Source: a candidate division FCPU426 bacterium
GTDB taxonomy: Bacteria; Oederibacteriota; Muellerivitia; Muellerivitales; Muellerivitaceae
Direction: 5' to 3'
Assembly (NCBI GenBank): GCA_003152075.1
Contig: PLZG01000054.1
Span: 21,067 to 85,066 of the forward strand
DNA: 64,000 nt
Shown: positions 5,637-63,560 of the stretch, in pieces
Position numbering within the stretch: position 1 is the stretch's first letter
Layout of the letters: each line of letters starts with the position of its first letter
Translations under genes and position numbers: made by a program
The notes under the pieces: generated by a model
Database searches by the model: none
What the model was told of the DNA's origin: nothing
Seen by the model: the letters and a program-made list of their open reading frames with translations, nothing else

Positions 5637-5733
5637 ATTTTCACCACGAAGTACACGAAGGTAAATCTTCTTTTAAAGAATTAACAAAAATATATGTTTC
5701 ACTTCGTGTGGCGCGAAGCGCCTTCGTGGTTAA
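5637..5733. repeat. family-B inverted-repeat element (ttttcaccacgaag ... cttcgtgg arms, AT-rich centre)
   Basis: Terminal inverted repeats flank an AT-rich spacer of about 40 nt. The GGTGAAAA end abuts the dapF RBS/start on the minus strand. Confidence 0.6.
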
Positions 5734-6593
5734 TGTTCTTTCACGCAGTACAGGTTCGTGTATTCGTCGTTTTCAACGGTATAACGGCTTAATAATTGAA
5801 GGGGCCGGACCGGCTTGATCGTCTTGTTCTTTTCGGAAATCTCCGAAATTTTGAACCCCATTGACTGAAGGGTCTTTAAATATTTGGCGGGGTCGCTTCC
5901 AAAGCGTTTAAGCCCCCCCGGCCAGAACTCCGTCACTAGCTTCAGGAACCTATTCTTCCGGACCAAGCCTTTCATTCCCTCCAGAGCCGCCATTTCCGCG
6001 CCTTGAATGTCCATTTTAATGAATTGAACTGCCTTGTCTCTATTTAAAAAGAACTTGTCCAGGGCGACGGTTTGGACCGTGATGGATTTCCGGCCGTCCT
6101 TGGAATTGTAAAGACGATGGTCTCCCTTGTTGGTTTCGCTAAGGAATAGGCGAGCGGTGTGGGTTTTGTTCGAGACGGCATCATTCAAGGGAATCACGTT
6201 GGTGTAACCATTTGCCAACACGTTCTTCAGGAGCAGTTTGAAATTGGCAGGGTCCGGTTCGAAAGCGTAAACCTTGCCCCCGTTTCCAGCCAATCGGGCC
6301 GCGATCAAGGTGTAATAACCGAGATTGGCCCCAATATCCAAAACCACATCCCCGGCGTGAATTTCCTTGAGGAAGAGATTCGTTTCCATCGGCTCGTAAA
6401 TGGTGTGGGTTCCCAATTCCAGGGTATCCCGGTCATCCAGCCATATCCGGTGGCCCTGGGCCACGACCGATTTGGGCCTCAAGAGGGTGAAGAAAAATTC
6501 GTAAAGCCACCGCAGGGGTTTGATCCGGCCCAGACCGTGACCGCCGATGGAGTAATAGGTTTTTTGAAGGAGGGTAAAGAGGTGGTTGGCCAT
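5730..6593 (-). CDS. FkbM-family SAM-dependent methyltransferase
   Basis: VLDIGANLGYYTL and IKMDIQGAE motifs. Start refined to ATG at 6593 (GGAG 12 nt upstream), 3 nt after the upstream stop; the track ORF extends to 6689. Confidence 0.75.
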   Translation of the reverse strand: MANHLFTLLQKTYYSIGGHGLGRIKPLRWLYEFFFTLLRPKSVVAQGHRIWLDDRDTLELGTHTIYEPMETNLFLKEIHAGDVVLDIGANLGYYTLIAARLAGNGGKVYAFEPDPANFKLLLKNVLANGYTNVIPLNDAVSNKTHTARLFLSETNKGDHRLYNSKDGRKSITVQTVALDKFFLNRDKAVQFIKMDIQGAEMAALEGMKGLVRKNRFLKLVTEFWPGGLKRFGSDPAKYLKTLQSMGFKISEISEKNKTIKPVRPLQLLSRYTVENDEYTNLYCVKEH

Positions 6594-6595
6594 GG

Positions 6596-8881
6596 TTAAT
6601 TTCTCCACATGCGAATGGGACCCAGGAAAAAGAATCCGAAGGTGATGAGAAGCCATAGTACCAGACCGATTTGAATGGGGTGAAGCCAATCGGGCTCAAA
6701 CCGAAACTCCACTTGGTGCTTCCCAGCCTCCATAAAAACCGACCTTAATAAATGGTCCGCGGTGAAGATGGCGGTGGGTTGGCCGTCCACCCAGGCCTTC
6801 CAGCCGGGAAACATGGTTTCGGAAAAAACCACAAGGCTGAATTGATCTAGGTTGATCCCGAATTGCTGGTAATCGGCATCGTCCCGCTCAAACTGGTAAT
6901 CGAGATGAGGATCATGCGCTTTTGAGATTCTTGGAAAATACTCGAAGAGTATCTTTTCGGTAAGGATTGCGGATATATGGGGGTCGAAACCAGGTTCGGA
7001 TAGAGTTTTGATCCTTTTCTCGAGTTCTGGGGTTTCCAATATGTAAGCGGGAGCAAAAACGTAAGGAAGGGGTTTCGCGTATTCGTACAAAATAAAGGGC
7101 GGATAGGATTCTTTTTTAAAGTTTGGTATTTCACCCAGATCCTGTTGGGTCACGATGCCCTTGATGGTCCCGACACCGACCATGGATTCCATTCCTAGAG
7201 TTCCCGTTTCCATTTTGGCCTGAAGAATCAAGGGGTTATACCCGCCAATATTTTTTATTTTCAAAGCGCAAGCCGCGTTTTGGGGGTAATTCAAAAGATA
7301 TTTTTGTCCCAGGACCTCGATGGGATAAAACATATGGATATTATCGAATTTAAGCCGGAAAGGTTTGATCCTCTGCCCGATTTCCACGAGGGTTTTTGAG
7401 TTTTTTTCATAATCAAAATTTGAAGAGGGACCGGGAATAAAATCCGCCCAGCCCCCTAATAAAAGGGAAAGGCCCAGGGCGGTTTGCATGAGGAGTGGGG
7501 CCGATTTTTTCCCTTTGGAAAACGCGAAAAAGGAGGCCATGCCTAAGGTCATGGCCACGATTTCACGCCAGTTCGCGGCGGGTTTAAAAAGCGCGACCAA
7601 GTTTAAGGACAGCCCGTAAATCAAGGGATACTTCAGCCCATCGAGGAGTTTTCCCTTGGCCGGTTTTTTGGAAAACCATTCCTCAAAACCTAATGCCGCC
7701 AGCAGGACGAGGGGGATAATGAAGAGATAAATAAAGCGGTAGGGAACGCGGATGAGGGAAACTCCCGGCAATACCGCGCATAAAAGGCGGTGGAGGGGGG
7801 TGAGCTGGCCGAAACAAAGGACCAGGGCGGCCAAGGCAAAAACCGAAAGAAACTTCACTAGCCCCTTATCTTTTCGGCGAAAGGCCGCCAGCGCGAAAAA
7901 GGGCGCCCAGACCCCCAGGAAACCCCAATTGCCAGCCAAGGGCATTTGGTCATCATTGCTCCTGGATTGCAGGGCCTCCGACATGGACTCCTTACCAGTT
8001 TGGGTAAAACGGGGAAGAAACAATTGGTAAAGGGAAAGGGGATTAAGTGGAAGGCGGCTATTGGCCTGCTCATAGGTTTGGCCTGGAGCTCCCCGGTCCG
8101 TCCGATTCGAAAATTCCAATGTGGGGATCAACTGGCCCAGGAGGGGCAAGGCACCCCAAAGGAAGAAAAAGGTTAAAAGTAAAAAAGTGTAAAAGTTCAA
8201 AGGTGAAACTTTTGAGAGCTTTTGATACAGGCGGTATAGAAAATAAGCCAATCCCCCGTAAAAAGCTCCCACCGTCACTTGAAAACTCCCGCAAAGGAAA
8301 AGCATGGCGAAACACAAGCCGGCGTAAAAGGCGTTTCGCGGTTTTGGGTTGAGGGCCAGTAGTTCCAACCGCCCGAACAGCCAGGGAAGCCAAGCGAAGG
8401 CGGCCACGACTGGTGGATGGATGATCTCTAGCCAGAAAAAATTGGAGAGGGAAAACAAGAGGGCTCCTGCAAGGCAGGCATTCTCGGAAAGCTTGATTGA
8501 CCGAAGCCACAAGTGCATCCCGGCCGCGGCGATGAACATGTGCAGGAAAAAGAAGAGGCTCATTCCATAGGGCAGGGAAAAGGGGAGAGTCAGGTAATTG
8601 ACCGGGTAAAGCATCATGTTTTGGAGGTCGGCGAAGAAGGGCTGGCCGCCCATGGAATAGGGGTTCCAGAGGGGGAAATGTCCTTGGGCCAGTTGGTCCC
8701 TTAAAAAAGCGCGCCAGGGGCCGAACTGGGCCAGCAAGTCATTGTCAAAGTAGGCTTGTCCCAGGACCAGGCAGGGGAAAAAGGCGACGAAGGATAAAAA
8801 GGCGTAAAGAACAAATGGAAAAAGGGGATGGGTCCAGAAATCCGCGGGAGAGGTTTTATTAGTTCGTTTGCGCAGGGGCAA
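6596..8881 (-). CDS. YfhO-like polytopic membrane protein, paralog 2
   Basis: 761 aa. N-terminus FFPCLVLGQAYFDNDL...GHFPLWNPYSMGGQPFFADLQNMMLYPVNYL is nearly identical in pattern to paralog 3. At least 12 TM segments plus a C-terminal soluble domain. Confidence 0.6.
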   Translation of the reverse strand: MPLRKRTNKTSPADFWTHPLFPFVLYAFLSFVAFFPCLVLGQAYFDNDLLAQFGPWRAFLRDQLAQGHFPLWNPYSMGGQPFFADLQNMMLYPVNYLTLPFSLPYGMSLFFFLHMFIAAAGMHLWLRSIKLSENACLAGALLFSLSNFFWLEIIHPPVVAAFAWLPWLFGRLELLALNPKPRNAFYAGLCFAMLFLCGSFQVTVGAFYGGLAYFLYRLYQKLSKVSPLNFYTFLLLTFFFLWGALPLLGQLIPTLEFSNRTDRGAPGQTYEQANSRLPLNPLSLYQLFLPRFTQTGKESMSEALQSRSNDDQMPLAGNWGFLGVWAPFFALAAFRRKDKGLVKFLSVFALAALVLCFGQLTPLHRLLCAVLPGVSLIRVPYRFIYLFIIPLVLLAALGFEEWFSKKPAKGKLLDGLKYPLIYGLSLNLVALFKPAANWREIVAMTLGMASFFAFSKGKKSAPLLMQTALGLSLLLGGWADFIPGPSSNFDYEKNSKTLVEIGQRIKPFRLKFDNIHMFYPIEVLGQKYLLNYPQNAACALKIKNIGGYNPLILQAKMETGTLGMESMVGVGTIKGIVTQQDLGEIPNFKKESYPPFILYEYAKPLPYVFAPAYILETPELEKRIKTLSEPGFDPHISAILTEKILFEYFPRISKAHDPHLDYQFERDDADYQQFGINLDQFSLVVFSETMFPGWKAWVDGQPTAIFTADHLLRSVFMEAGKHQVEFRFEPDWLHPIQIGLVLWLLITFGFFFLGPIRMWRN

Positions 8882-20412: not shown

Positions 20413-20513
20413 TTTGAACCACCAAGAAACCCGAACGGAAAGAATTTTGATTTATCTGGAAAAGATTGTGATTTTTCTTTCCTTGGTGACCTTGGTGTCT
20501 TGGTGGTGAAATG
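20413..20513. repeat. family-B inverted-repeat element
   Basis: tgaaccaccaagaaacc ... ccttggtgaccttggtgtcttggtggtgaaa arms around an AT-rich spacer. Confidence 0.6.
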
Positions 20514-20765
20514 GGGTTTTCTTGGGGTAAAAATATAAAGGCCCGGGGATTTGCCCCCGGGCCGCTATATGGTGCTTCTTAGATAACGCGCTGAATAAAG
20601 GTCTTTATACCGCCGGGAGTCTCTAGCGCATCCCGCGCTCATGTTTTCCCCGCTGACTAATAATGTTTTTCGGCGAAGGTTTATTCCAAAAATAATTTAA
20701 TTTTCGGGGAAATTTTAGGGTGGTTTTGAGCTCAAAATAAGGCAAGAACCGTAAATCAAAATAAT

Positions 20766-21369: not shown

Positions 21370-21527
21370 GGTTGTAATCTCTGAAAAATATTTTTGTAGG
21401 GGCGCGATTTATCGCGCCCGAGACGGAAACAATTGAAAACAAAGGCCGGGCGGGATGAATCCCGCCCCTACAACGGCAAAAACAGCGCCGATAGATGAGC
21501 TTTTCAGTGGTTACAGGTTTACTCCCC

Positions 21528-22679: not shown

Positions 22680-22971
22680 AATTCAAAGGCATTGAAACAG
22701 GGATGGACGCGGATAAACGCAGATTCAGAAGAAATAAGGTGTTTGAAGCTTTTTTATCAGCGTTCATCAGCGTTTATCACTGTTCCAAAGATTTTGTTAG
22801 AGCCTCTAAGAATCTTTTAATAGGTTCTGGATTTCGTTGGAGGGATTCTAACAAACCTTAAATGGGGACGCTATAACTAGGGCAATCCGGTTACGGAAAC
22901 GTAACTCCTTGCCTCTTTCCCCCGGAAGCCGTAATGATAGGGATGAATAAGGACAGTTAAGGAGAGTTCCC

Positions 22972-24006: not shown

Positions 24007-24409
24007 TCAAGTTGTCCAAGTGTCTGTAACTTTACTCCAACCCGCCGGGTAAAATGGATCAAGCCGAAAAGTCGGTAGTGCTCAGTTAAGTTTTGGATTT
24101 GGACTGTCATTGCGAGGAATGCACGCCGAATAGGCGGGCGGTCATGACGAAGCAACCCCAGTTTAAATATGCCGTTGAGGTGGATCCGGAACCAAGACTA
24201 GAACCACCTATGAACTTGAAGCCTGGTTGTAGTTGGCCTTCGGCCAACCACGGTCATCCGAAGTAAGGATGACCGCTTCAAGCCACCTCAAAATTCGAGG
24301 TTCGCAATGACATCTAAAAACGGCTAAACAATTAAAAAATTGGAAATGAAAACGGCGCTGGAAGTTAAGATTCCAGCGCCGCTCGTGCGAAGTCAGCTGC
24401 TTCGAAAAT

Positions 24410-28093: not shown

Positions 28094-28214
28094 TTTTCAC
28101 CACGGTGGTGCTTCGCGCCACACAGAGACACGGTTACGGCAGTAAAGAATTAAATTGATTAAAAATATCTTCTTTAACTGTGTCCTTGTGGTTCCGAAGG
28201 AACCTGTGGTGGAA
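28094..28214. repeat. family-B inverted-repeat element
   Basis: tttttcaccacggtggtgcttcgcgccacacag ... ccttgtggttccgaaggaacctgtggtgg arms with an AT-rich centre, about 20 nt upstream of the VOC gene start. Confidence 0.55.
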
Positions 28215-29674: not shown

Positions 29675-30256
29675 CTAAGTTTTGCGGGTGCAGAGCACCA
29701 ACCCGGTCGACCAATTCATTTTACAAACATGAAAATCTTTTAACCCTTCTAATTTTCCGAGCAGTTCGTCGACCGATTGCTGATGCCCTTCCGGCCAATT
29801 GGGCTGGGGAAGCATATCATCCAAGATATAAAACCCGCCGGGAGCGACGAGGCGGAGTGTTTCCTCTAAGGTGTTATATTTTCCAGGCCATGAGTCGGCA
29901 AAAATGAAATCAAAGGTTTGGCCCGCCAATGACTTAATTAATTCAATGCCATCGGCAAATTGAAGGGTCAGCCTGGTGTCAGAACTTAGAAATTTCTTCG
30001 CTACGGAAACAAATTCAGGGTTGTTATCCACCGACAACAAAGTGGATTGGGAATCCATCCCGTTCAAGATCCATGCAGCCGATAATCCCGTACCCGTTCC
30101 GATCTCCAAAAACCTTCCCTTGGGTTTGGTGGCCGCCAAGGTTTGCAACAAATTACCCGTTAAGACGTCCGAAGCCATATTGAAATTCATGGACTTGGAC
30201 ACTTTCAACAGGTCAAAGTATTTGGCGGGATATCTAATCGTTGCTTCATTATTCAA
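29675..30256 (-). CDS. class I SAM-dependent O-methyltransferase
   Basis: FLEIGTGTGLSAAWIL motif I. Confidence 0.7.
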   Translation of the reverse strand: MNNEATIRYPAKYFDLLKVSKSMNFNMASDVLTGNLLQTLAATKPKGRFLEIGTGTGLSAAWILNGMDSQSTLLSVDNNPEFVSVAKKFLSSDTRLTLQFADGIELIKSLAGQTFDFIFADSWPGKYNTLEETLRLVAPGGFYILDDMLPQPNWPEGHQQSVDELLGKLEGLKDFHVCKMNWSTGLVLCTRKT

Positions 30257-30310
30257 AACAAAACTCCTTTTGTGATTCTATCTACTGTCCGCGATAGGCC
30301 ATTTTCTAGA

Positions 30311-30349
30311 AACCCTCGCCCCTTGCGGGAGAGGGTAGGGTGAGGGGGG
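30311..30349. repeat. family-A repeat copy
   Basis: aaccctcgccccttgcgggagagggtagggtgagggggg. Confidence 0.8.
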
Positions 30350-30358
30350 ATTCTTTCC

Positions 30359-30832
30359 TTATCGAATCTCAATCCATCCGATTTTATCCAACTTGCGATG
30401 TTTTCCATTCAAATCCATTCCATAGCCAAAGAGCCAGTAATCTTTAATCCCCTTTTGGGCCAACTTCTTATGATTGAGGCCCAATTCAATCCCGCAAAAG
30501 TCCACTGGCCCGCCATGGGACTTATATTTCTTTATGAAGACAGCAGTTTTTACCTCGGGAGCGCCTAAGCGGATTATTTCCTTTTTTAGGGTTTGGAGGG
30601 TTAATCCCGAATCCACCAGGTCGTCCACGATCAAAACAGGGAATTGACGGATTGTTTTTGGGTCCAGCTTGCCCATCTGCCACTTGCGGTTCTTTAAAAG
30701 TTTTGTTCCCTTTGTTCCAATGACTCGGATTTCATGTATTTTTATCTTAACTTCCGGCATCAACTTTTTGAGGCTTTGGACAAGGTCCCGAGTAAATTGA
30801 CGGGCGCCTTCCAGAACGGAAACAAAATTCAA
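30359..30832 (-). CDS. purine phosphoribosyltransferase (HPRT-like)
   Basis: VLIVDDLVDSGLTLQTL PRPP-binding motif; TTG start; lower GC than its neighbours. Confidence 0.65.
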   Translation of the reverse strand: MNFVSVLEGARQFTRDLVQSLKKLMPEVKIKIHEIRVIGTKGTKLLKNRKWQMGKLDPKTIRQFPVLIVDDLVDSGLTLQTLKKEIIRLGAPEVKTAVFIKKYKSHGGPVDFCGIELGLNHKKLAQKGIKDYWLFGYGMDLNGKHRKLDKIGWIEIR

Positions 30833-31025
30833 AGATTTTTTGTTGTAGTTTCGAAACCAAAGGGAGATTTGCTGGGCGATTCCTTTTACTTATGTTTGAA
30901 TCGCATCTTTATTGAAAATGATTTTTGGGGCTGGTGATGACATGGCGAAGATTTTAGCACAGGTGAGAAAATCGAGGTTGGGCCGATAAAGCTCTTCCAA
31001 TAAAAAGAAAAACGGCTCGAGTGCC

Positions 31026-31364
31026 CTAATATTTTTTTTGTCCTCTGCTTTTCCGTTCTTCTTGTTTTTCAAAAAAGTCCTTAAAAGCTCCTTTTGCACC
31101 TTCGAAATAACCAGTTTTTTCAAATTGAACTGTTGGGACGTTTACAGTGCCGTCTTTTTTGATTCGAATACCGAACAATTCTTCGGGGGTGCTTTGACCT
31201 TCCCCTTTTTCTTTAAATACATCGAAAGAAAAACCGCAACCATAAAAACTGATCATTTTAAAATTATGTGTGTAGTTGGTATTGTTATAAGGAAAAATTA
31301 GTAAGTCACTATATTCGCTTTTTAAAAATATTTTAAACCAGATTGGAAATGTTGAATCGTCCAA
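31026..31364 (-). CDS. hypothetical protein (AT-rich islet)
   Basis: ORF only; no motif recognised. Confidence 0.3.
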   Translation of the reverse strand: MDDSTFPIWFKIFLKSEYSDLLIFPYNNTNYTHNFKMISFYGCGFSFDVFKEKGEGQSTPEELFGIRIKKDGTVNVPTVQFEKTGYFEGAKGAFKDFFEKQEERKSRGQKKY

Positions 31365-31537
31365 CTTGGTGTCGTCTAAATAAATTTCCTTAAATTCGTT
31401 GTATTGTTTAGCGGTTAGAATAGCGTCAAGTTCTTTTGGGCGAGCTAAATGAGTTCTTATAATAATTCCAAAAACAAATTTTTGAATCTTCCGAAAATTC
31501 AGGCCTGACCAATTTAAAAATTCAAAGTGTTCATTTC

Positions 31538-31843
31538 TTATTGGAAGAAATATTTTTTTTTAGTGATGAATTTTCTTTCTTTGGAGTTCGGAGCGTCGTC
31601 GGTTAAAACTTTACTGGCGTAATTATCGTCGTCTGAAAAACCATCTTCGCAATTTTCACAAATAAAATCTTTTTTATAACCCTTTTGATGAATTCGTATC
31701 GTGCCTTCTTTCATGTTCATGAGATGTAATCTGCGTTTTCCGTTCATTTGTTTATAAAAGGGTTTATACATCCACTCAGGCACTACATGACTGTTTGTTT
31801 TGAGCTTGTTTACGGTTTTTTCACAAAATGCACAAACCGGCAT
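31538..31843 (-). CDS. small Cys4 protein, possible HNH-like nuclease
   Basis: CAFCEK..SHVVPEW...N..H...CENCEDG spacing is reminiscent of the HNH Cx2C..H..P..N..H..Cx2C pattern. Confidence 0.35.
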   Translation of the reverse strand: MPVCAFCEKTVNKLKTNSHVVPEWMYKPFYKQMNGKRRLHLMNMKEGTIRIHQKGYKKDFICENCEDGFSDDDNYASKVLTDDAPNSKERKFITKKKYFFQ

Positions 31844-31920
31844 AGTTTCCTCCTAGATGAAATGTCTTTGAGGTTTGAAAAGTTGGCAGTTGTTCGTTGT
31901 GAGGATAAAAATAGAATTTT

Positions 31921-32340
31921 TTATCTCGATAGAACGAATGTTGATTGTTCGACCCAACCCACTAATTTAAATGCGTAATAAACTCTTATCGAGTTATCAT
32001 TCTCTTTTTTGAAAATGAGTCTTTGGTAGGGCCTGAGATTGATGTTGATTTTATTTTCTGAAACAAACTTTTGTAATTCGTCTTTGTCATTGGGCCATCT
32101 GGAATATTTTTTCTGAAAAGACAGAATGAGCTCGTATAACGCAAGTCTGCCAACCGGCCCAGTATAGTTATCGTGATCGCCTAATAAGAGCTTTGAAGAA
32201 ATGTATCCGAGGAAAGCCAAAACTACGATAAGAAAAAGAATTGCTAGTATTGCTGAAATTCTTTCCTTCAAACTCATATTTAGAATATCAAGGATAAACT
32301 CACTGTGATTTTTTGGAGGTTTTTGCTTAGCGAACGTCAT
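31921..32340 (-). CDS. hypothetical membrane-anchored protein (AT-rich islet)
   Basis: Single TM helix; no motif recognised. Confidence 0.3.
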   Translation of the reverse strand: MTFAKQKPPKNHSEFILDILNMSLKERISAILAILFLIVVLAFLGYISSKLLLGDHDNYTGPVGRLALYELILSFQKKYSRWPNDKDELQKFVSENKININLRPYQRLIFKKENDNSIRVYYAFKLVGWVEQSTFVLSR

Positions 32341-33802: not shown

Positions 33803-33968
33803 TGTTCTCGATACTCCTGATGGGTAATTATACCAGTGCTCTTAAAAAGTTTTGCCATAGTTTTGAGTTCTAAGTTTTGAGTGTTGAGTTATGGTCATTT
33901 TTCATCGGTTTTTGATGAAAAATCTCATTAACTTAAAACTAAGAACTTAGAACTCAAAACTGTAGGGG

Positions 33969-39950: not shown

Positions 39951-40136
39951 TGAATAAATGCTATCACAAAAGCAATTATGAATTATGAATTTTAAATTTT
40001 GAATTGTGGTTATTTTCACCTTCGGTGAAAATTTCATTCATTCAAAATTCAACATTTTAAATTAAAAATTGGTGTTTTAAGCGCCCTTTTTCTCTTTTGA
40101 GAAAAAGGATTTCTTCGCCTTTTGAGGATGTGCGGC

Positions 40137-40640: not shown

Positions 40641-40767
40641 GGCTTCCTCCGGTTATGATTTTAAATGTCAGAGTTGTTCGTTAGGGCGTTGAAAAGGATG
40701 CAAGGTTAACGAAGGTGCCAAAAACTGTCAAGAATAAAGGTAATGAAGCCCACTAACCGAAACCTGA

Positions 40768-40902
40768 TTTACCGCCACGAGCGCCACGTTCGCTACGAGA
40801 GGCAAAACCAAAAACATATTGTTTTTTAAAATCTTGAAAAACCCTGGCATTTTCCGCCTTTCGTCTTTCTTGGCGAACTTGGCGTCTTGGCGGTGAAAAG
40901 TC
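40768..40902. repeat. family-B inverted-repeat element
   Basis: accgccacgagcgccacg ... cttggcgaacttggcgtcttggcggtgaaaag. Confidence 0.6.
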
Positions 40903-41580: not shown

Positions 41581-41675
41581 TGACACGAAGACTCCAAGAC
41601 ACCAAGAGAGGCTTTGATTTTCCTTCAAAGGAAATCGTCCTTCTTCGTGCCTTTGTGTCTTAGTGTTGGCTTCGG
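41581..41675. repeat. family-B inverted-repeat element (degenerate copy)
   Basis: gacacgaagactccaagacaccaag ... cctttgtgtcttagtgttgg. Confidence 0.45.
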
Positions 41676-43951: not shown

Positions 43952-46900
43952 GTGAACAGCCGTATCTATCAAAATCCTATTGGTTTTTTATTCCGCCTCA
44001 TCCTCGTTTCCGGTTTGGGCTTTGTAATTACCGCCACGACCGCATCGGGCCAAATCACACTAACCAAATCGGTTAACGTGTCAAGCGCCTCACCCGGTGA
44101 CGCGGTCACTTACACCCTTTCCTATACCAACGCGAATGCCAACAGCACCTGCCCGGACAATTTCGAAGGTGACACGCTGGGGAATTTTCCCACGGGCTGG
44201 ACCCAATCCCAGGGGACTTGGTCGGTCGTCTCGGACAATGGGCCCACCTCGGCGGGAACCCAGGCCCTCCAGGGCGTGGCGGCGGCGAATAATTATCCCT
44301 ATCTCCTCAACAATTGCTCCACCCAGGTGGGGGACGGTTATATCCAAACCGACATGAAGATCGGCGCTGGCGGAACCCAAAACGGCGTTCTTCTTTTCCG
44401 TTTCAACGGCACAGGCACGGTGAACGGCTCGAATTACCAGGCCTTGATCGGGGTGGGCAACACCAACAACGTGTCGGAGGACTATTGGAACAACACCGCG
44501 GCCACTTTCAATACGGTCACCACGGGTAGCGCGGTGATCGCCGCGAACACCTGGTTCACCGCCAAATTCGAGGTTACGGGCTCGGGCCCGGTTACCCTAA
44601 AATTGTGGATCAACGGTACCCTGGCAGCCACAGGCACCACGGCTTTCGCCATTGGAACGGGGCAGGGTGGCCTGCAATCCAATAACAGCAGCACGGTCAG
44701 GTTCGACAACGTTTCCATCGTCAAGTATCCGCCCGCTTACAACGTGACCGTGACCGATACTCTGCCGGCGGGGTTGGCCTATTCCTCCTCCAGCGGTTCC
44801 CCAGCCGTGGCGGGGCAAAAGGTGGTTTGGACCTTGGGAAACCTTGTCGGCGGGGCCGCCGGAGCCCTGACCCTGGTGGGTACGATCAATAATTGCGGCG
44901 TCAACCTGATCAACACGGCTGAGGCGGATAGCGGGACACCCCAATTGGGCGTGAATTCCAACCCGGTAACAACCACCGTGATTGGCTGCACCCCGACGTC
45001 GACGAATAGTCCCACCTTCACCCTTACTCCCACCAAGACCGCCACGCCGACCCCGACCCCGACCCTGACGTCGACAAATTCCCCGACGTTAACCCCCACA
45101 AATACACCCTCAAACAGCCCGACGAGCACACCGACCAACAGTTACACGAACACTCCGACCGTTACCCCGACGAATTCGGCTACCAATACGTCATCCCCTA
45201 CGGGGACGAACACTCCTACCGGCACTCCAACGAAAACACCCACCAATACACCTAGCAACACTCCAACCAATACTTCCTCAAATTCGCCGACCAACAGTCC
45301 AACCACGACGCCGACCAATAGCCCAACGACAACGCCGAGCAATACACCGACCAATAGTCCTACGACCACGCCGTCCAACACCCCCACGAATAGCCCAACG
45401 ACCACACCTACCCAATCGCCCACGACGAGCCCCACCAATAGTCCAACCGCGACACCCTCTAATTCTCCGACCAATAGCCCCACCATTACCTCCACCAACT
45501 CCCCCACGGCCAGCCCCACCAATTCCCCCACCGTGACCCCTTCAAACACCCCGACCAATACGCCAACTTTGACGCCGACTAATACGTCAACGGCTTCACC
45601 GTCCAATACTCCTACGGGCACTCCGACTTTCACGCCGACGAATACGCCTTCTTATACCCCTACCAACAGCCCGACGGTGACGCCGACCACAACGCCCAGC
45701 AATACGCCGACCAATAGCCCCACGGCCACCCCTTCAAGCACACCCACGAATAGCACAACCACCACGCCTACCCATTCGCCAACGCCCAGCCCCACCAATA
45801 CCCCGACGTCGACACCCTCGAACACGCCGACCGAAAGCCCGACCATCACACCAACGTCTACCCCAACCAATAGCCCAACATTAACCCCGCCCAACACACC
45901 CACGCCAACCCCCACTATTACTCCTAGCTACTCACCTACTAATAGCCCGACGATCACTCCTTCCAACACCCCCACGAATAGCGCAACAACGACGCCTACC
46001 AATTCGCCCACGGCCAGCCCCACCCATACCCTGACCATGACTCCTTCGAACACGCCGACGGAAAGTCCGACAACTTCACCTACGTCTACCCCAACTAATA
46101 CTCCGACCTTGACGCCTCCTAATACGTCGTCCCCTACGGGGACGAGTACTCCTTCGGGCACACCCACCCCAACATCCACGAACAGCCCAAGCAATACGCC
46201 TACGAACACCCTCACCCATTCACCTACCCAAACCCCGACGCTTTCGCCGACCAATACTCCTTCCAATTCTCCGACCATAACTCCGACCGACACGCCCACC
46301 ACCACGACAAGTAATACTCATACTAATACCCCAACGAATACCCCCATTTCCACACCGACTAATAGCCCCACGACCACACCACCAAGCACTCCCACGAATA
46401 GCTCGACGACCACACCTACCAATTCGCCTACGGCTACCTCCACGAATAGTCAGACCGGGACACCCTCTAATACTCCCACCCATAGTCCGACGACTACTCC
46501 CACGAATTCACCTACCCAAACTTCGACAATTACGGCAACCAATACTCCCACCCATTCCCCAACCACTACGACGAGCAATACCCATACGAATACCCCGACG
46601 AATAGCCCCACTTCCACGCCGACTAACAGTCCCATCAACACGCCACCCTTGACCCCTACCCATACGTCGACGGCTTCGCCATCGAGTACTCCTACGGCCA
46701 GTCTGACCAGTTCGCCTACCTCAACGTCGACAAACTCGCCTACACTTTCACCTTCCAGCAGCCCAACGAATACCTCGGGCACCAGCACTTTCACTTACAC
46801 CAATACATCCTCTTACACCAACACTCCTCCTTTCACCCCCACGCCAACCTACACCGATACCCCGACCTATAGTTTTACTGCCACTCCCAGCCCGACCAAC

Positions 46901-47821
46901 ACATTACCGCCAGGAACCAATACCTATACGCCGGGGGGCACCAGCACCTTTACCTATAGTTACACTCCGACTTTCAGTTACACGCCGACTTATACCTACA
47001 CCCCCACTCTGACGCCGACCCTCACCCCGACTTATACCAACACCCTGCCTCCGGGGACCAATACCTACACCCCTGTTAATACGAACACCATTACTCCCTC
47101 CTACACTTCAACGCCGACCTACACTCGCACCATGACTTATACCCAGACCATTACCTTTAGCCCCACGCCCTCGGTAACGATAACTCCCGCCGTCACCGTT
47201 ATCGCCTCACCGGCCTGCGACCAGGAAGCCGTGAAAATTTTCGACGAGCGAGGGGAACTGGTCAAAACCCTTTGCGGTACCATGACCGCCCCCCAATCCG
47301 TGACCTTCACCTTCACGATGTCCCATTTCACGCCCAGTTCAACGGGGCAGGGCGGGACCCTCACCTTCTATGTAAACGGCCAGGCCATCGCCACTTGGGA
47401 CGCCACGGACAAGAATGGAAATAGGGTGCCAAACAGTTTCTACCACGTTGTTCTTGAACAAAGGGTTTTGGATGGGTCCCTGGCCCGACGGGAAAGGGAC
47501 ATCTTCATTTCAACCACCACCCAAACATCCGCCGTCCAACTTTTGGCTTATCCGAATATCGCCCACACCGGCGGTTCCATCAGCCTATCCGCTGCATTCG
47601 CGGGGAATCCGGCGGATAGCCGGAGCAACATTAAGATTTACGCAGTCAGCGGGGAACTGGTGAAAACAATGGAGTTGAACAGCGGCCAGGCTTCCTGGGA
47701 TTTGACCAACAGCCAGGGCTCGCTTGTTTCTTCCGGCGTGTACCTTATATTCCTGGATGGGGTGGACGTGAATACCGGTAATTCCGCCTCGAAGGTCATC
47801 AAAGTGGTTGTTCTGCGGTAA
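43952..47821 (+). CDS. giant secreted mucin-like protein: DUF11-like domains split by a LamG-like insert, ~730-aa Thr/Pro/Ser/Asn repeat region, two C-terminal FlgD-Ig/CTD-like domains
   Basis: 1289 aa. N-terminus [26 protein letters not shown] (DUF11-like). TPTNSPT-type repeats span about 45000..47200. C-terminal ...[28 protein letters not shown]. Confidence 0.8.
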
Positions 47822-54930: not shown

Positions 54931-54970
54931 TCATGAGACTAAAAAACTTTTAAAAATTTAGGGGTCCATT

Positions 54971-57489: not shown

Positions 57490-57551
57490 AAGAAATGGAA
57501 ATTATTTACTTTGCAAAGCATTCAAATAGTTAAGTCTGGTTTTCGATATTT

Positions 57552-57648
57552 CCCCCTCTCCCTAGAAGGGAGAGGGCCGGGGTGAGGGTGGTAACCACTG
57601 GCTGACAACACCCCTCACCCTACCCTCTCCCGCAAGGGGCGAGGGTTT
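57552..57648. repeat. pair of family-A repeats in inverted orientation (long hairpin) between convergent genes
   Basis: The forward variant at 57552..57590 and the reverse canonical copy at 57611..57648 can pair. They sit between the GT9 stop and the pseudouridine synthase stop, so probably act as a bidirectional terminator. Confidence 0.7.
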
Positions 57649-57686
57649 TTCGGTGTGCTTTGCCAAACGCGTAGTCTCGAAAGAAA

Positions 57687-58259: not shown

Positions 58260-59665
58260 TGGATTCCTTGAAATATTTTTTCGGCGGCGGCCTGCCCCGC
58301 CGCGATGCAGTCGGGAATTCCAACACCCTTAAGCCCGTTGCCTGCCAGGTAAAGGCCCTTGGTTTCGGTGGCCTTTTGTTCGATCCGGGAAACCTGGCTC
58401 AAGTGGCCGGGCCTGAAGTATGACATGGAAGCATTATAGGTAGCCAGGTGGTGAACGACCGGCCTGTCGCGCAAATTCAAGATTGGTTTTAACTCCTCCA
58501 ACACTTTCTCTAATACGGCCGATTCCCCTTGGGCCTTGACCTGTTCCACCGCCTCTTGCCCGAGGAATGCTCTTAACAGAACGTAGCCCTCGGGCGCGCG
58601 GCCCTCGAACTTTTGGCTGGCGAAGGTACAGCCCACGACCAGCTTCTTCTCACGCGAAGGCACCACGAATCCAAAGCCGTCCAGGGGATGGTTCACGTCC
58701 TGGCGGCGGAATCCCAGGTTCAGGGTGGCGGAGTCATGGGCGGGAATGCCTGACAAGAGCTTGTCCCATTCCTTGTCCAGGGCACCGATCAAGGGCCTAA
58801 TCTTGGCGGGTTGGATGGCCAAGATAACCGCATCCACTTCCTGGGACCGACTGTTGGCTGAAACTTCCCAGGTCCCATGGTCGGTGGGCTTCAAGGAATC
58901 CACGGGACTTTGGAGCCACATGGATTCGGAGGGGATTTGAGAAACCAGGGCATTGGCGAAACTTTCCATTCCTTTTTTGAAACTCACGAAGAGGGAATAG
59001 CGGGCGCCCGAAACCTGGGCCTGTTTTTTGATGCGGTTGGCCGCCATTGCTTTAAGCAGGGAGCCAAACTTTTTTTCCATTTCCTTGAAACGGGGCATGC
59101 AGGCGGAAAGGCTCAGGTCATCGGGGTCGGCGTTATAGACGCCGCCGATCAAGGGTTGGGCCAGGTTATCCAACACCTCACGGCCCAAGCGACGCCTGAC
59201 GAATTGGCCCACGCTTTCGTCCTGGGGGTCCTTGCGGACCTTAATAAAGGGTTCCATCGCCGCGCGCAACTTGCCCAAGGGGGAAAGAAGGGGGGTGGTC
59301 ATGAGTGGCCAAAGGCGGGAAGGGGCCAAAAGGTAGAAACCCTCGGGGATAGGGAATAAACGGTGACCCTTTAATATGAAGGACTGCTTGAGGGTCTGGT
59401 TCGTTTTGATGAGCTGGTCTTCCAGACCCAGTTTCTTGCAAAGTTCCAGGCCCGCGGGCTTTTCGGTGATGAAGCAGTCCGGGCCTTCTTCCATGAGAAA
59501 GCCGTTGTTCTCAATGGTGCTCAGGGTGCCGCCCGCTTTGTTGCCGGCGTCCAGGATGTTCAACTCAAGGGGAATTTGCTTTTCCTTGGAGAGCTCCAAA
59601 AGGCGGTGGGCGGCGGCGAGGCCGCTGATTCCCGCCCCAATGACCGTAACACGTAAGGGGTTCAT
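58256..59665 (-). CDS. hemY: protoporphyrinogen/coproporphyrinogen III oxidase, HemY (CgoX)-type
   Basis: VTVIGAGISGLAAA FAD motif; ..IPLELNILDAG.., ..LLRAFLGQE.., ..GVGIPDCIAAGQAA.. resemble Bacillus HemY. Confidence 0.85.
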   Translation of the reverse strand: MNPLRVTVIGAGISGLAAAHRLLELSKEKQIPLELNILDAGNKAGGTLSTIENNGFLMEEGPDCFITEKPAGLELCKKLGLEDQLIKTNQTLKQSFILKGHRLFPIPEGFYLLAPSRLWPLMTTPLLSPLGKLRAAMEPFIKVRKDPQDESVGQFVRRRLGREVLDNLAQPLIGGVYNADPDDLSLSACMPRFKEMEKKFGSLLKAMAANRIKKQAQVSGARYSLFVSFKKGMESFANALVSQIPSESMWLQSPVDSLKPTDHGTWEVSANSRSQEVDAVILAIQPAKIRPLIGALDKEWDKLLSGIPAHDSATLNLGFRRQDVNHPLDGFGFVVPSREKKLVVGCTFASQKFEGRAPEGYVLLRAFLGQEAVEQVKAQGESAVLEKVLEELKPILNLRDRPVVHHLATYNASMSYFRPGHLSQVSRIEQKATETKGLYLAGNGLKGVGIPDCIAAGQAAAEKIFQGIQ

Positions 59666-59750
59666 TTAAAGTCCAATTTTGAATGACTGAAAATTCTCGA
59701 TGGTTTAGCCATCGAGAATTTACCACAATTCATAATTATAAATTCATAAT

Positions 59751-60734
59751 TCATAATTGCTGGCCTCCCTGGTCGATGCCTTCCTCGACAAGGGAGGCCA
59801 GCATGGCGATAAAAGAAGGGTGGGTGCCCACGGTTTTAGCCCGCACCATATGCAGCCCCTTCCACTTGGCCTTGTCGGCGGCTAGCACATCGATGTCGTA
59901 AAGCACTTCCACGTGGTCCACCAGGAAACCAATGGGTGCCACCACGCAAGCGGCCAAGGTCTCGTAAGTGCGCCGGTCGAGGAATCCGGTGAGGTCGGGT
60001 TCCAGCCAAACCTCCTCAGGCCGGCCGCTGCGGCTGGTGAAGGCGGTCTGGTAATAGGGCATCCCCACCTTTTGGGTCACCAGCTGGCAGGTTTCCTCGA
60101 ACTGGTGGGAATAGGGGGACTTATGGGCCATGGCCTTTGGAATACTGTGGGCCACCAGGATTAACTCGGCCCGGTGACGGGACTTTTCTTCCTCGCTTAA
60201 CTGGGCGTAGGCCTCTTGGACATGCTGGGCGATGGCATTGATGAAGCCCGGGCGGTTATGCCATTCGGGGGTATAGGTGATTTCGGGCACAGGTAACCCC
60301 TGGCCCTTGATTGACTCAAGTGCTTCGTCCACCCTTGTGACATATTTATCGTAAGACGCCGGACTGCGGTGGGGAGCCATGACGATGGCGAATATTTTGG
60401 TTTTGCCCTGCTTGGCCAGCTCGGTCAGGGTGTCAGCGATACGGGGAGCGTAATGGGCAAAGCCTACCTGAACCGGGATTTCGAGGCCCCGTGAAGACAA
60501 AAGTTTCTCCAGGGCCTGGGCTTGTTCCTTGGTGAGACGGTTATAGGGGGAAACACCGCCGATTTTTTCGTATTGCTTGGCCACCAGCTTCAGGCGCTCG
60601 GGAGGAATATCCTTGCCCCGGGTGACGTCCTCTAGGAAGGGAATGACATCCTCGGGCTTTTCAGGTCCACCATAACCGATGAGTAGGACAGCGTCGTAAT
60701 TCAAAACAAACCTTTCACAGAGTTTTACCGCCAA
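59751..60734 (-). CDS. hemH: ferrochelatase, Bacillus/CpfC-like
   Basis: LLIGYGGPE, ILVAHSIPK, PIGFLVDHVEVLYDID. The real start is probably the TTG at ~60704, preceded by GAAAGG. Confidence 0.85.
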   Translation of the reverse strand: MAVKLCERFVLNYDAVLLIGYGGPEKPEDVIPFLEDVTRGKDIPPERLKLVAKQYEKIGGVSPYNRLTKEQAQALEKLLSSRGLEIPVQVGFAHYAPRIADTLTELAKQGKTKIFAIVMAPHRSPASYDKYVTRVDEALESIKGQGLPVPEITYTPEWHNRPGFINAIAQHVQEAYAQLSEEEKSRHRAELILVAHSIPKAMAHKSPYSHQFEETCQLVTQKVGMPYYQTAFTSRSGRPEEVWLEPDLTGFLDRRTYETLAACVVAPIGFLVDHVEVLYDIDVLAADKAKWKGLHMVRAKTVGTHPSFIAMLASLVEEGIDQGGQQL

Positions 60735-60865
60735 GACGCCAAGTTCGCCAAGAAAGGCGAAATAATAAATATGTTTTCTCGCACATTGATGTTAACAAAA
60801 CATTTAATATTTTGTGTTTTTCCGGTTATTACTTGGCGATCTTGGCGTCTTGGCGGTGAAAAGCC
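60727..60865. repeat. family-B inverted-repeat element between hemDE stop and hemH start
   Basis: accgccaagacgccaagttcgccaag ... cttggcgatcttggcgtcttggcggtgaaaag, a nearly perfect IR around an AT-rich spacer. Confidence 0.65.
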
Positions 60866-62794
60866 TTAGGGTTTCCATGCCTTTACCGTTTCGATCAACG
60901 AGTGCACGTTATCTACCGGGGTTTGGGGCAGGATGCCGTGGCCCAGGTTAAAGATATGGCCAGGCTTGCCGCCCGCCATCCGCAGGATTTTCTCGGCTTC
61001 CACCTTAATCTTATCCGGATTGGTCAAAAGCACGGTGGGGTCCAGGTTGCCTTGGATAGCTACATTGCCCAGCTGTTTCCAGGCCTTGTCCAGGTCCACG
61101 TGCCAATCCACGCCGATGACCGTCGCGCCCGTATCCTTCAACCAGGGGAAGAAAGGCTCGGTTTGGGTGCCGAAGTAAATAATGGGAACACCAGGTTTCA
61201 AACCTTTAATAAGGGCTTTCAAATAGGGCAGCACCAGTCTTTGGAACTCGTCGGGCGCGAGGATGCCCACCCAGGAATCAAATAACTGGATGGCCTGGGC
61301 TCCGGCGGTTATCTGGGCATTCAGGTAGGAAATCGTGGAAGCCACCAGCCGCTTCATCAACTCGTCCCAAAGGACAATATCGCCCAGGACAGCCCTTGTA
61401 TGGAAGTAATCCTTGGAGCCGCCCCCTTCTATGACATAAGAGGCCAAGGTGAAAGGCGCGCCCGCGAAACCGATGAGGGGAATGTCCGGCTTCAAGCGCG
61501 CCCGGATTTGATGGATCGCTTCCATCACATAACCAAGTTCTTCCTCGGCGTCAAAATCCCTCATTCGTTTCATGTCGGAGGCCACTCGGAAGGGATTGCG
61601 GATGACGGGTCCCCCGCTTTCCACGAATTCCAATTGAAAGCCCATCGGTTCAGTAATTAGGAGAATGTCGGCGAAGAGAATGGCGGCATCCACACCCAAC
61701 TCTTGTTGGGCATGCACGGTTACCTCGGCGGCCAGGTCGGGGTTTTTGCAGAGGTCCAGGAAAGAAACCATGGCGCGGATTTGACGGTACTGGGGCATGT
61801 AACGGCCCGCCTGGCGCATAATCCAAATCGGCGTGCGGGGTACGGCCTCACGTCGGCAAGCCTTTAAGAACAAGCTGTCCTGAAGAAGGGTAACGGGGTT
61901 TTTGAGGGTGGGGGTGGAAACGCGAATGGGGGTGGAATCTTTCTTTTTTAAAAGATCCTGGCTCTTCTCGGCGGCTTCCCTGACCAAGAAACCCATTTTG
62001 GGATGCTCTGGTTCGAAGTCCGGGGTGACTCCCTCGCTTTTGAGCGCCTCGGTCGTCACGGGACCAATGGAGCCGATCACCATTTTCGAGAAGGCTTCCC
62101 TTAATTCCGTCTCCCGGTGTAATTCCTGGGCCACTTGGATTACGTTGTGGATCTGTTGGCCGCTGGTGAAAAGGGCCACTTGAACATCGCCCCGCATGAT
62201 GTTTTGAATGAGGCTCATGAGGGGTTTGGTATCTTCCGGCAGGGCCCAGCGGTAAACGGGAACGCTGGTGACATCCTTCGCCCCACGGTCCTTGAGGGCC
62301 TGGATCAACTCGGGATTGGGAACGCCGTATTCCTGGACGGCGACTTTGAGTTTCTTAATGGACTTGTAATCATCCAGGGTTGTCAGGACTTCACGCCAGG
62401 TATTGGGCTCGGGAACGATGACCGAGGCTTTTAATCCGTAATCGCTCAGGGCCTTCACCGTTTTGGGGCCGCGGGCGACCATGGTTAATAACTTAAAGGC
62501 CTTGTTGATGTGACTCTTGGGATACTTGGACTCAATGGCCTGGAATAGGGTGGTGGTGCCGACACCGGTCATGAAAATGACTACGTCCAGATACCCTTGC
62601 TGAAGGTTTTCAAAAAAATCGAAGGCGGCTTTGTTTTGGTAGAGGGGAATTTCCCTCATGGAAGGGGCCACCTGGGGTTTGCCCCCATGGCGGGTAATCA
62701 GGTCTTCCATTTCCTTGGTCTTGCGGCTCTCGAAGGCTGCGACAGTTAGGCCTTCCAGGCCGTGGCTTTCGATTTCATTAAGGGTGGGGGGCAT
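60866..62794 (-). CDS. hemDE: fused uroporphyrinogen-III synthase / uroporphyrinogen decarboxylase
   Basis: 642 aa. The first ~300 aa have the HemD-like repeated flavodoxin-like halves. The C-terminal ~340 aa have PIWIMRQAGRYMPQY and the HemE (URO-D) fold. Confidence 0.8.
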   Translation of the reverse strand: MPPTLNEIESHGLEGLTVAAFESRKTKEMEDLITRHGGKPQVAPSMREIPLYQNKAAFDFFENLQQGYLDVVIFMTGVGTTTLFQAIESKYPKSHINKAFKLLTMVARGPKTVKALSDYGLKASVIVPEPNTWREVLTTLDDYKSIKKLKVAVQEYGVPNPELIQALKDRGAKDVTSVPVYRWALPEDTKPLMSLIQNIMRGDVQVALFTSGQQIHNVIQVAQELHRETELREAFSKMVIGSIGPVTTEALKSEGVTPDFEPEHPKMGFLVREAAEKSQDLLKKKDSTPIRVSTPTLKNPVTLLQDSLFLKACRREAVPRTPIWIMRQAGRYMPQYRQIRAMVSFLDLCKNPDLAAEVTVHAQQELGVDAAILFADILLITEPMGFQLEFVESGGPVIRNPFRVASDMKRMRDFDAEEELGYVMEAIHQIRARLKPDIPLIGFAGAPFTLASYVIEGGGSKDYFHTRAVLGDIVLWDELMKRLVASTISYLNAQITAGAQAIQLFDSWVGILAPDEFQRLVLPYLKALIKGLKPGVPIIYFGTQTEPFFPWLKDTGATVIGVDWHVDLDKAWKQLGNVAIQGNLDPTVLLTNPDKIKVEAEKILRMAGGKPGHIFNLGHGILPQTPVDNVHSLIETVKAWKP

Positions 62795-62861
62795 TCCACT
62801 TTACCTTTGAACTGGGATGGGGTATGAGAGGTTAAGTATAAAAGCTCTCGAGGGTTTTTAA

Positions 62862-63437
62862 TTGAAAAAATTCATCGGATTATTCGTCCAAGGAATTGGG
62901 CTCGGATTGGGCCTCGGTCTTTGCCTTGCCGGGCTGGTGGCCTTGATATACAGGGCGGCCCACAGCGGGGAAGTGAACCTTCATTTTGAGCACACCGCCA
63001 TTTACTTCCTGGTGGTAGGCGGCTTGATGGGTGTAATCGGGGGATGGTGCCTGTCCCTTCAGATGATCCTGGGGGGCCTGCTATCCACGTTATTCCTCAA
63101 AATAGCCGAGCTGGTTCCCATGCCCGCCCAAGTGGTGGGAGAGGAATGGGCGAAAAAAATGGAAACCTTCTTCCGCGAAATCATCCAACCTTTTCCCGGC
63201 TTCTTCCGGAAATTCATCGAGTGGATTTTCATCCTGCGTTTTGAGGATTTCGGGCGAATCAACCGAGCCTTGGACAAGGCGAAGAGAAAAGGGGACACGG
63301 AAAGGGCCAACACCCAGTGGATGTCGATGGTAGTTCTGCATTACCTCTTGGAGCCTTTGTGGCTCTTCTTTTACGCGGCCTATGTTATTCTTTTACTGAT
63401 CAGTTGTGTTTTCTGGAGTTTTCCGTTTTTCGGATAA
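62862..63437 (+). CDS. hypothetical integral membrane protein
   Basis: 4-5 TM helices; no motif recognised. Confidence 0.4.
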   Translation: MKKFIGLFVQGIGLGLGLGLCLAGLVALIYRAAHSGEVNLHFEHTAIYFLVVGGLMGVIGGWCLSLQMILGGLLSTLFLKIAELVPMPAQVVGEEWAKKMETFFREIIQPFPGFFRKFIEWIFILRFEDFGRINRALDKAKRKGDTERANTQWMSMVVLHYLLEPLWLFFYAAYVILLLISCVFWSFPFFG

Positions 63438-63451
63438 AGACAAAGGAAGTT

Positions 63452-63560
63452 TGAACCACCAAGGCACCAAGGGCACCAAGAACTGCGAAAGTAAAAATCT
63501 TTATGGTTTTCAGAAAAAAATCCTTCCTTGGTGCCCTTGGTGCCTTGGTGGTGAAAAAGG
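63452..63560. repeat. family-B inverted-repeat element
   Basis: tgaaccaccaaggcaccaagggcaccaag ... ccttggtgcccttggtgccttggtggtgaaaaagg; ends 7 nt before the ATG at 63567. Confidence 0.65.

Follow-up and report, generated by a model that had tools for sequence, protein, structure and literature searches.

Why does one stretch of bacterial DNA carry long hairpins of the same build at so many of its gene junctions? We asked this of a 64,000-nucleotide (nt) segment of a candidate division FCPU426 bacterium (contig PLZG01000054.1, positions 21,067 to 85,066), called the window throughout, in which an earlier note had described seven intergenic inverted-repeat loci with a common architecture. All seven are indeed present as long hairpins, and an eighth, of a sister type, lies at 22694-22786. 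On balance we favor the view, which we hold to be fairly probable, that these eight loci are gene-less, non-autonomous copies of a widespread hairpin element associated with GxxExxY genes and resembling miniature inverted-repeat transposable elements (MITEs) or REPINs, the paired repetitive extragenic palindromic (REP) sequences that fold into hairpins. A broader proposal seems to us quite possible without being the safer bet: that GxxExxY proteins are the nucleases of previously unrecognized, cross-phylum mobile hairpin elements, which would insert at operon junctions with their own stop codon and ribosome-binding context, propagate mostly without the gene, and form a PD-(D/E)XK analogue of homing or of the pairing of REPINs with REP-associated tyrosine transposases (RAYTs), eight such hairpins being found in the 64-kb window.

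Inverted tandem arrays form long hairpins in the window

The copies share one plan: a TTT(n)ACC end leads into two or three units and an A+T-rich core (about 40-80 nt), after which the units return in reverse complement and close with a GGT(n)AAA end. Each arm is a tandem array, inverted relative to the other, of a C-R-C-N-R-A-G unit with a 1-2-nt spacer, giving a spacing of 8-9 nt. Tandem units of this form gave 17 matches in the window compared with 1.7 in shuffles, an approximately tenfold excess, and the TTTnACC...GGTnAAA termini are found in six of the seven copies, the exception being the degenerate copy 41581. On folding, all seven formed long hairpins with z-scores between -2.7 and -10.4 (Table 1). 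The unit sequence varies among copies (CACCAAG, CGCCAAG, CACGAAG and CACGG-like), and within each copy the arms match each other. The right arm had been described as two or three CTTGGYG units with a fixed end; this is exact in the four copies at 20413, 40768, 60727 and 63452, in which the units run into CTTGGYGGTGAAA with no mismatch, but copies 5637 and 28094 carry other unit types and copy 41581 is degenerate. When up to two mismatches were allowed, the right-end pattern gave 17 matches in the window against 4.65 expected.

Table 1. Hairpin elements in the window, named by unit type, with their settings and folding z-scores.
Element	Coordinates	Strand	Setting or source	z-score
CACGAAG/CTTCGTG type	5637..5733	-	between FkbM-type methyltransferase gene and dapF	-5.2
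CACCAAG/CTTGGTG type	20413..20513	+	downstream of FlgD_ig-domain gene	-3.5
Eighth element, sister type, 10-nt ACGCRGATRA units	22694..22786	.	pattern scan of window	
CACGG/CTGTGG-like units	28094..28214	-	between AHSA1-family gene and PF06983 gene	-4.3
Three CTTGGCG right-arm units	40768..40902	+	between divergent dksA-like and LemA genes	-6.9
Degenerate, without TTTCACC/GGTGAAA ends	41581..41675	+	LemA/M48-peptidase junction	-2.7
CGCCAAG/CTTGGCG type, 3+3 units, 30-bp stem	60723..60865	.	between hemD-hemE and hemH	-9.1
CACCAAG/CTTGGTG type, 3+3 units, perfect 26-bp stem	63450..63560	+	before methyltransferase gene	-10.4
Minimal termini-only hairpin TTTTCACC-TTCG-GGTGAAAA, no units	40012..40032	.	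covariance-model match 40014-40030, E ~0.07	

Several copies show how the arms change. In copy 20413 the left arm is short and degenerate and the right arm consists of three units followed by GGTGAAAT; a separate GC-rich hairpin follows at 20533-20570. The left-arm units of copy 40768 all read CGCCACG or CGCTACG, which produces a systematic C.T mismatch in three of three units, and in 22694-22786 (ACGCGGATAA and ACGCAGATTC opposite ATCAGCGTTC and ATCAGCGTTT) the central base of every unit is mismatched between the arms. Copy 41581, the fifth in the series (copy 5), is regarded as an old element.

Some arms contain smaller hairpins. A GGCGCGAAGCGCC mini-hairpin is nested within one arm of copy 5637, and copy 28094 holds two, GGTTCCGAAGGAACC and GTGGCGCGAAGCACCAC. 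Mini-hairpins of the GGCGCGAAGCGCC kind (or its complement), containing GCGAAGC, lie at 5709-5721 and 28109-28125 in the window, and they recur in elements from other phyla, at 4596-4608 and 5037-5051 of locus L056 and also in L087 (L and P numbers are our handles). The GCGAAGC sequence forms an unusually stable DNA mini-hairpin. Such nested structures hint at single-stranded DNA biology without proving it.

Two further arrays were seen in the window. Between two minus-strand genes at 33859-33961 lies a hairpin whose 48-nt arms are tandem 7-nt units (AGTTTTG/AGTTCTA), which has the architecture of the main family at an exact 7-nt period. At 39974-40070 a separate hairpin is built from AATTATG/AATTTTA 7-nt units, and at its center (40012-40032) a UUCG-type loop connects the two termini that characterize the main family.

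The arms recur across phyla and covary

The distribution of the arms was scanned with the exact 21-nt pattern CTTGGYGNCTTGGYGGTGAAA in one genome per species, and the count is a lower bound. The pattern occurs at at least 119 loci in more than 10 phyla, against about 4 expected by chance on our own estimate, (1/4)^18 x (1/2)^2 x 1.2e12 positions. Among the matches listed, to which the pairing figures below also refer, are Alpha-, Beta-, Gamma- and Deltaproteobacteria, Acidobacteriota, Planctomycetota, Verrucomicrobiota, FCPU426, Chloroflexota, Cyanobacteria, Bacteroidota, Armatimonadota, Sumerlaeota and others, with Azospirillum and Propionivibrio as cultured isolates. A good inverted partner accompanied 86 of 134 arms, about 75 of these having it within about 180 nt; most partners lie 9-180 nt away, and a second group lies at 400-520 nt. 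The cores are not conserved, and their composition follows that of the host.

The earlier note had suggested looking for compensatory base changes, and these were found: across 34 arm pairs of several unit types, both sides changed at 17 of 24 stem positions, one of which was A-U in 20 pairs, G-C in 14 and unpaired in none. Such covariation is expected both of a folded nucleic acid and of two ends read by one protein. The covariance model proposed in the same place was less useful. Our model R1, not used for counts, was trained on 34 artificial minimal hairpins, in each of which the outer 24 nt of the two arms were joined by GAAA; it did not tolerate the long interiors of real elements and failed to recover them, returning weak matches only (e.g., 40014-40030). 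Rfam gave zero matches in the window at the gathering score, and permissive thresholds added only noise-level microRNA-precursor hairpins. A BLASTN search of the full element against plasmids returned no match, probably because the low-complexity filter masks the repeats.

Full-length members carry a GxxExxY gene between the arms

An all-versus-all comparison of the open reading frames (ORFs) at these loci (at least 119) brought out no recurrent transposase; the one ORF with a constant place was a small one lying between the arms. In these full-length members the arms bracket a gene of about 130 codons for a GxxExxY protein (TIGR04256 / PF13366 PDDEXK_3). Four of the 119 arm-selected loci among the matches listed bear it (L046, L067, L056 and, as a pseudogene, L009), with E ~1e-40 to TIGR04256 / PF13366. 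In L056, TTTTTCACCACCAAG...CTTGGTGGTGAAAAA surround the ORF, and L046, L067, L009, L120 and L124 are arranged alike. Full-length carriers include a Rhodocyclaceae metagenome-assembled genome (MAG), a Burkholderiales MAG, Terriglobia, Bacteroides, Sphingomonas and Bernardetia. The window copies, where the GxxExxY profile gave no match, are therefore filed as gene-less derivatives.

The association also holds when approached from the protein: among eight loci chosen by their GxxExxY protein, six had flanking inverted arms. Arms are present at P0114 (L120), between two ABC permease genes, and at P0064 (L124), between trpE and trpG. In Sphingomonas parapaucimobilis the order is fabD / GxxExxY / fabG with CGCGAAG arms, in Bacteroides finegoldii radA / GxxExxY / FAD protein with CACAGAG arms ending GTTCACC...GGTGAAAAAATATG, and the Bernardetia locus likewise has CACAGAG arms. 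In Treponema there is a single 11-bp inverted repeat, equivalent to one unit. The Gemmatirosa gene lacks flanking arms and has a complete gene-less hairpin directly downstream; the Prevotella locus is taken up below.

The left arm is often part of the gene itself. The ATG of L046 and L067 lies within the last left-arm unit, and the L009 ORF begins ATG AAC CAC CAA GAC ACG AAG. Most of the 120 closest homologues have N-termini (MHQE..., MNHQDTK... or NRQDAK...) that are translated arm units, and about a quarter of family-wide representatives start with other translated arm types (TEDTE, AEDAE, HRGTE, HEDTK). The L046 ORF starts with ATGCACCAAG, and some gene-less copies still have exactly this sequence at the inner end of their left arm.

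These features bear on the direction of the relationship. Gene-less hairpins could be primary or older, with the nuclease gene homing into their loops as do the ORFs in 23S rRNA intervening sequences; this account overlaps with ours and differs in direction only. The great excess of gene-less over gene-bearing copies would suit it, as would the presence of related nucleases in arms of different unit types and the complete Gemmatirosa hairpin adjoining an arm-less gene. But the ATGCACCAAG kept in gene-less copies points to deletion derivatives, and in many family members the left arm is coding sequence. We consider this direction unlikely, and continue to read the gene-less copies as derivatives of a gene-bearing element.

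The GxxExxY gene is predicted to encode a PD-(D/E)XK nuclease: residues D73, E83 and K85 are invariant, leaving the D...ExK motif intact. An AlphaFold2 model had a mean confidence (pLDDT) of 94, and its fold matches were weak, the best being Cas4, lambda exonuclease, the AddAB/AdnAB nuclease domains and splicing endonuclease, with I-Bth0305I also among them; no solved structure related by sequence was found. The family is very large (33,461 representatives of 50%-identity clusters at E <= 1e-3) and has been described as of unknown function and mixed phylogeny (PMC3424549). Some members of 270-295 residues, P0241-P0250 and others, have two complete tandem domains.

Elements come and go at orthologous junctions

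We compared three sites of the window with their counterparts in relatives: the hemDE/hemH and LemA/M48 junctions and the DNA upstream of LemA. The nearest hemH homologues (72-93% identity) are from a lineage not in culture, and one is carried on a contig of an FCPU426 MAG. At the hemDE/hemH junction, L130 and L131 have no element and an overlapping stop/start (TAATG), the window has a CGCCAAG-type element, L126 a CACGGAG-type and L127 a CACAGAG-type, and L129 has a 91-nt spacer with no obvious element. At filled sites hemH starts with TTG or GTG after GGTnAAA(A)GG, in support of the TTG start proposed earlier for the window gene. On its hemH side, copy 60723 adjoins CTCTGTGAAAGGTTT, apparently what remains of the end of a CACAGAG-type element like that of L127. 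A different hairpin, not of the heptamer type, with 29-nt arms (79% complementary), lies at 59675-59737 in the 85-nt spacer between hemH and a downstream amino-oxidase (hemY-like) gene.

The LemA sites were compared across 80 LemA relatives from metagenomes. The LemA/M48 junction is empty in five relatives, which have 2-5-nt spacers, and in others it holds elements of at least four unit types, including CACCAAG-, CACAGAG- and 10-nt-unit elements; the 10-nt type of 22694-22786 occupies it in L148, L155, L151 and L137. Copy 41581 itself is conserved at the orthologous site of four relatives, whose LemA identity is 76-94%, and these orthologues show nearly no covariation, the arms being almost invariant. 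Upstream of LemA most relatives have no such element. In L163, 96% identical, the boundaries there are the same as in the window and the flanks about 90% identical, with CACCAAG in all six unit positions and an unrelated core. A stretch that is degenerate in L159 is occupied in its close relative L160 by a CACGAAG-type element. Together, these comparisons indicate gain, loss and replacement of elements at fixed junctions.

The DNA upstream of LemA has two other features. A TTGAAG-N17-TAATAC motif downstream of copy 40768 reads as promoter-like. A block of about 60 nt, GGGCGTTGAAAAGGATAGAAGATTA.CGAAGG....AAAAACTGTCAAGAATAAAGG upstream of a CCTATACT motif (window 40660-40760 and L136-L167), has kept its nucleotide sequence in LemA relatives of 73-96% identity and may be a promoter or operator, or else a small RNA belonging to the divergent dksA-like gene.

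Elements often sit between stop codon and ribosome-binding site

At least five of the seven window copies lie between genes of the same direction and adjoin both the stop codon and the Shine-Dalgarno sequence; the exceptions are one copy after a gene end and one between divergent promoters. The left end commonly touches or runs into the stop codon of the gene before it, and the ribosome-binding site of the next gene is often supplied by the right end, GGTGAAA(A)GG. Copy 5637 has its TTAACC end in overlap with the preceding stop codon and places GGTGAAAA 10 nt ahead of the dapF ATG; in copy 28094, GGTGAAAAA lies about 21 nt before the ATG of the PF06983 gene; and the methyltransferase gene, whose ATG is at 63567, draws its Shine-Dalgarno sequence, 7 nt upstream, from GGTGAAAAAGG of copy 63450. 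The earlier note had seen this merging of the GGTGAAA end with the ribosome-binding site, and it appears again in other phyla, where elements occupy the trpE/trpG, fabD/fabG, radA/FAD-protein and livH/livM junctions. The gene contexts given there also hold: Pfam matches identify dapF, a fused hemD-hemE followed by hemH (all on the minus strand, with the element between them), LemA with the M48 peptidase, and the methyltransferase. The supposed VOC gene beside copy 28094 is present, but its family is PF06983 (3-dmu-9_3-mt).

A position this close to start codons invites an explanation at the level of RNA. The hairpins could be host-selected structured RNAs, REP-like cis elements that stabilize or process polycistronic mRNA or tune downstream translation, with GxxExxY as an occasional passenger in the loop. 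They are very stable, lie inside operons and form or abut the Shine-Dalgarno sequence at their right end, and the arms of the copy-5 orthologues are much better kept than the neighboring spacer. However, orthologous junctions that lack an element work perfectly well, their stop and start codons overlapping or lying 5 nt apart; close relatives have exchanged unit type and core as a whole; and every unit of copies 40768 and 41581 and of 22694-22786 has a systematic mismatch. Identical arms in more than 10 phyla are also hard to reconcile with vertical conservation, and there is no Rfam match. Nor is there a bias of orientation: the perfect arm faces a gene start in 51 cases and a gene end in 57, a weak test in which gene strands were taken from the longest ORFs, and which weighs mildly against a strand-specific RNA function. 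The conserved structured 5' leader suggested earlier is for the same reason not general, since copies also stand at a gene end and between divergent promoters. We judge a host-selected RNA to be rather unlikely.

A role as bidirectional intrinsic terminators or attenuators would account for the strong stems and for the GGTTTT or T-run that follows the right end in some relatives. Yet a terminator scan of 60000-64000, which contains two elements, called neither; the loops, short in a Rho-independent terminator, are 40-80 nt long; any T-run, which should come straight after a GC-rich stem, is here preceded by the stem's A-rich end; and elements stand between tightly coupled pathway genes (hemDE-hemH, and trpE-trpG in L124). 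This function we regard as extremely improbable.

The arms might instead be protein-binding arrays, iteron-like or ribbon-helix-helix-type operators bound cooperatively by a regulator or partition-type protein. Short repeats at 8-9-nt spacing, both direct and inverted, would suit such a role, and the copy-5 orthologues keep the unit sequence while one unit position varies freely and unpaired. On the other side, copies in a single genome differ widely in unit sequence yet keep complementary arms, the majority are found within operons and not at promoters, and no protein family recurs in more than 10 of the 119 loci listed. No regulator is consistently adjacent. The response-regulator or iteron array proposed in the earlier note is without support, and a binding array of any kind appears very unlikely from the loci compared.

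Comparison with known repeat systems

Compared with catalogued families, the elements fall outside REP/RAYT systems, classical MITEs, intrinsic terminators and Rfam. The nearest likeness is to REPIN-RAYT systems: both consist of short, dispersed, intergenic palindromes that form hairpins as single strands, occur as many gene-less doublets with a few flanking a small nuclease-type gene, and show presence/absence polymorphism. Unlike REP sequences, the window elements lack the conserved 5' GTAG (or GTGG) that precedes an imperfect palindrome of 20-40 nt, end in TTTnACC and have arms of tandem 8-9-nt units; the arm sequence is common to many phyla; and the gene flanked is a PF13366 / TIGR04256 PD-(D/E)XK gene, whereas RAYT is a Y1 HUH transposase. 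A classical REP/REPIN-like inverted doublet, TTGTAGGGGCGCGATTTATCGCGCCCG / CGGGCGGGATGAATCCCGCCCCTACAA, with a GTAG start and a GC-rich palindrome, does occur at 21394-21473, distinct from the main family. A similar unit, GTAGGGGCGAGGCGCCGCCTCGCCCCTAC, interrupts the L009 GxxExxY pseudogene.

Like MITEs, the elements are non-coding, 95-140 bp long, have terminal inverted repeats and resemble internally deleted derivatives of a gene-bearing element. They differ in that no target-site duplication was seen, at flanks too diverged to place exact junctions, and no DDE transposase is present, the only gene-bearing relatives encoding the predicted PD-(D/E)XK nuclease; their inverted repeats span nearly the whole element and are internally repetitive; and they are strikingly confined to gene junctions, with stop codon and Shine-Dalgarno sequence preserved. 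The earlier suggestion of a MITE-like element used repeatedly therefore stands as to dispersal, presence or absence at orthologous sites and arms that bracket a nuclease gene elsewhere.

Three other systems share parts of this plan. The 23S rRNA intervening sequences are long hairpins that RNase III excises and whose loop, in some variants but not in others, holds a small ORF of the four-helix-bundle protein family. They resemble our elements in having a long stem with or without a loop ORF, placed in a transcribed region with host function kept, and differ in that the window elements lie between protein-coding genes and not in rRNA. Cyanobacterial short tandemly repeated repetitive (STRR) sequences repeat their units at a strict 7-nt period, and neither inverted arms nor a nuclease cargo is known to define them. 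Heptamer-scale tandem units in intergenic DNA and small hairpins nested in larger ones are common to both, but the main family has 8-9-nt spacing and defined termini. The window also contains the period-7 inverted arrays at 33859-33961 and 39974-40070. Homing endonuclease genes, free-standing or intron-borne and including those of PD-(D/E)XK type (e.g., I-Ssp6803I), are likewise small nuclease genes in host transcription units that spread between genomes and have a mixed phylogeny; here, in contrast, there is no intron or intein, gene-less copies are abundant, and the arms are repetitive hairpins instead of a unique target site. By analogy, the elements seem to parallel REPIN-RAYT and MITE-insertion sequence pairs in logic, and to differ by enzyme fold and by the repetitive arms.

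A model for the spread of the elements

We favor a mobile or selfish element in which gene-less copies are dominant, because the anatomy, cross-phylum spread, nuclease cargo, junctional position and turnover at orthologous sites fit together. Spread and turnover would be driven by DNA-level events at the hairpin or cruciform, the likeliest agent being cleavage in trans by a GxxExxY protein, after which another copy would act as template for repair or gene conversion through the homology of the arms, a mode that would resemble homing or the REPIN-RAYT relationship. The number of units may drift through replication slippage, which would explain why the units of one arm share a mutation absent from the other. 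Once transcribed, an inserted hairpin would place a long double-stranded RNA stem in the operon transcript, a possible target of RNase III and a possible modulator of the adjacent start site; such effects at the RNA level would be a consequence of insertion and not the reason for which the element exists.

Several observations weigh against this model. No GxxExxY gene was found by a profile search of the window and about 0.2 Mb of related contigs, so that a cognate nuclease in the lineage is unproven. A PD-(D/E)XK nuclease is by itself not a known transposase, and both the nuclease activity of GxxExxY and the mobility are predicted. Filled-versus-empty comparisons gave no target-site duplication or clean recent insertion junction, the flanks being too diverged for exact junctions to be placed. 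The arms of the copy-5 orthologues are kept far better than the surrounding spacer at 76-94% LemA identity, which could reflect host-level selection instead of selfish persistence. One of the eight protein-chosen loci, that of Prevotella, has direct repeats only and no inverted arms. Finally, GxxExxY proteins about 60% identical carry different unit types, and because related proteins sit in different arms, a simple one-nuclease-one-arm specificity is doubtful.

Other features of the window

A second repeat family of about 75 nt, TATTTAAACTGGGGTTGCCACGTC...CTCGCAATGACA, has two copies in the window (4654-4731, plus strand; 24095-24167, minus strand) and others at L047 3837-3914 and L035 2352-2424. 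Identity is 83-91% among the window copies and FCPU426 MAG contigs, with no tRNA call by ARAGORN and no Rfam match. An ORF of 1289 codons at 43952-47821 has a GC skew of -0.30 to -0.35, its only recognized domain being a C-terminal FlgD_ig; the gene before copy 20413 is also of FlgD_ig type. A low-GC island at 30000-32000 (0.39 versus about 0.52 elsewhere) contains several small ORFs without a Pfam match.

Implications for the GxxExxY family

Literature searches by arm sequence, by the names GxxExxY, PDDEXK_3, PF13366 and TIGR04256, and by concept returned no description of the elements or of the association, which curators or papers in subscription journals may nevertheless have noted. The association would explain several oddities of annotation: low-complexity N-termini (MNHQDTKDTK, TEDTEDTE), spurious small ORFs, and non-ATG starts beside GGTGAAAGG. 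It predicts a structure- or repeat-specific nuclease, for which Azospirillum, Bacteroides finegoldii and Sphingomonas parapaucimobilis are cultured hosts. If the model is true, it gives the very large orphan family GxxExxY / PDDEXK_3 its first functional context and adds a new enzyme class to the few systems that spread palindromic repeats in bacterial genomes, and insertion at operon junctions in a manner that spares the flanking genes would represent an unusual coexistence of element and host.

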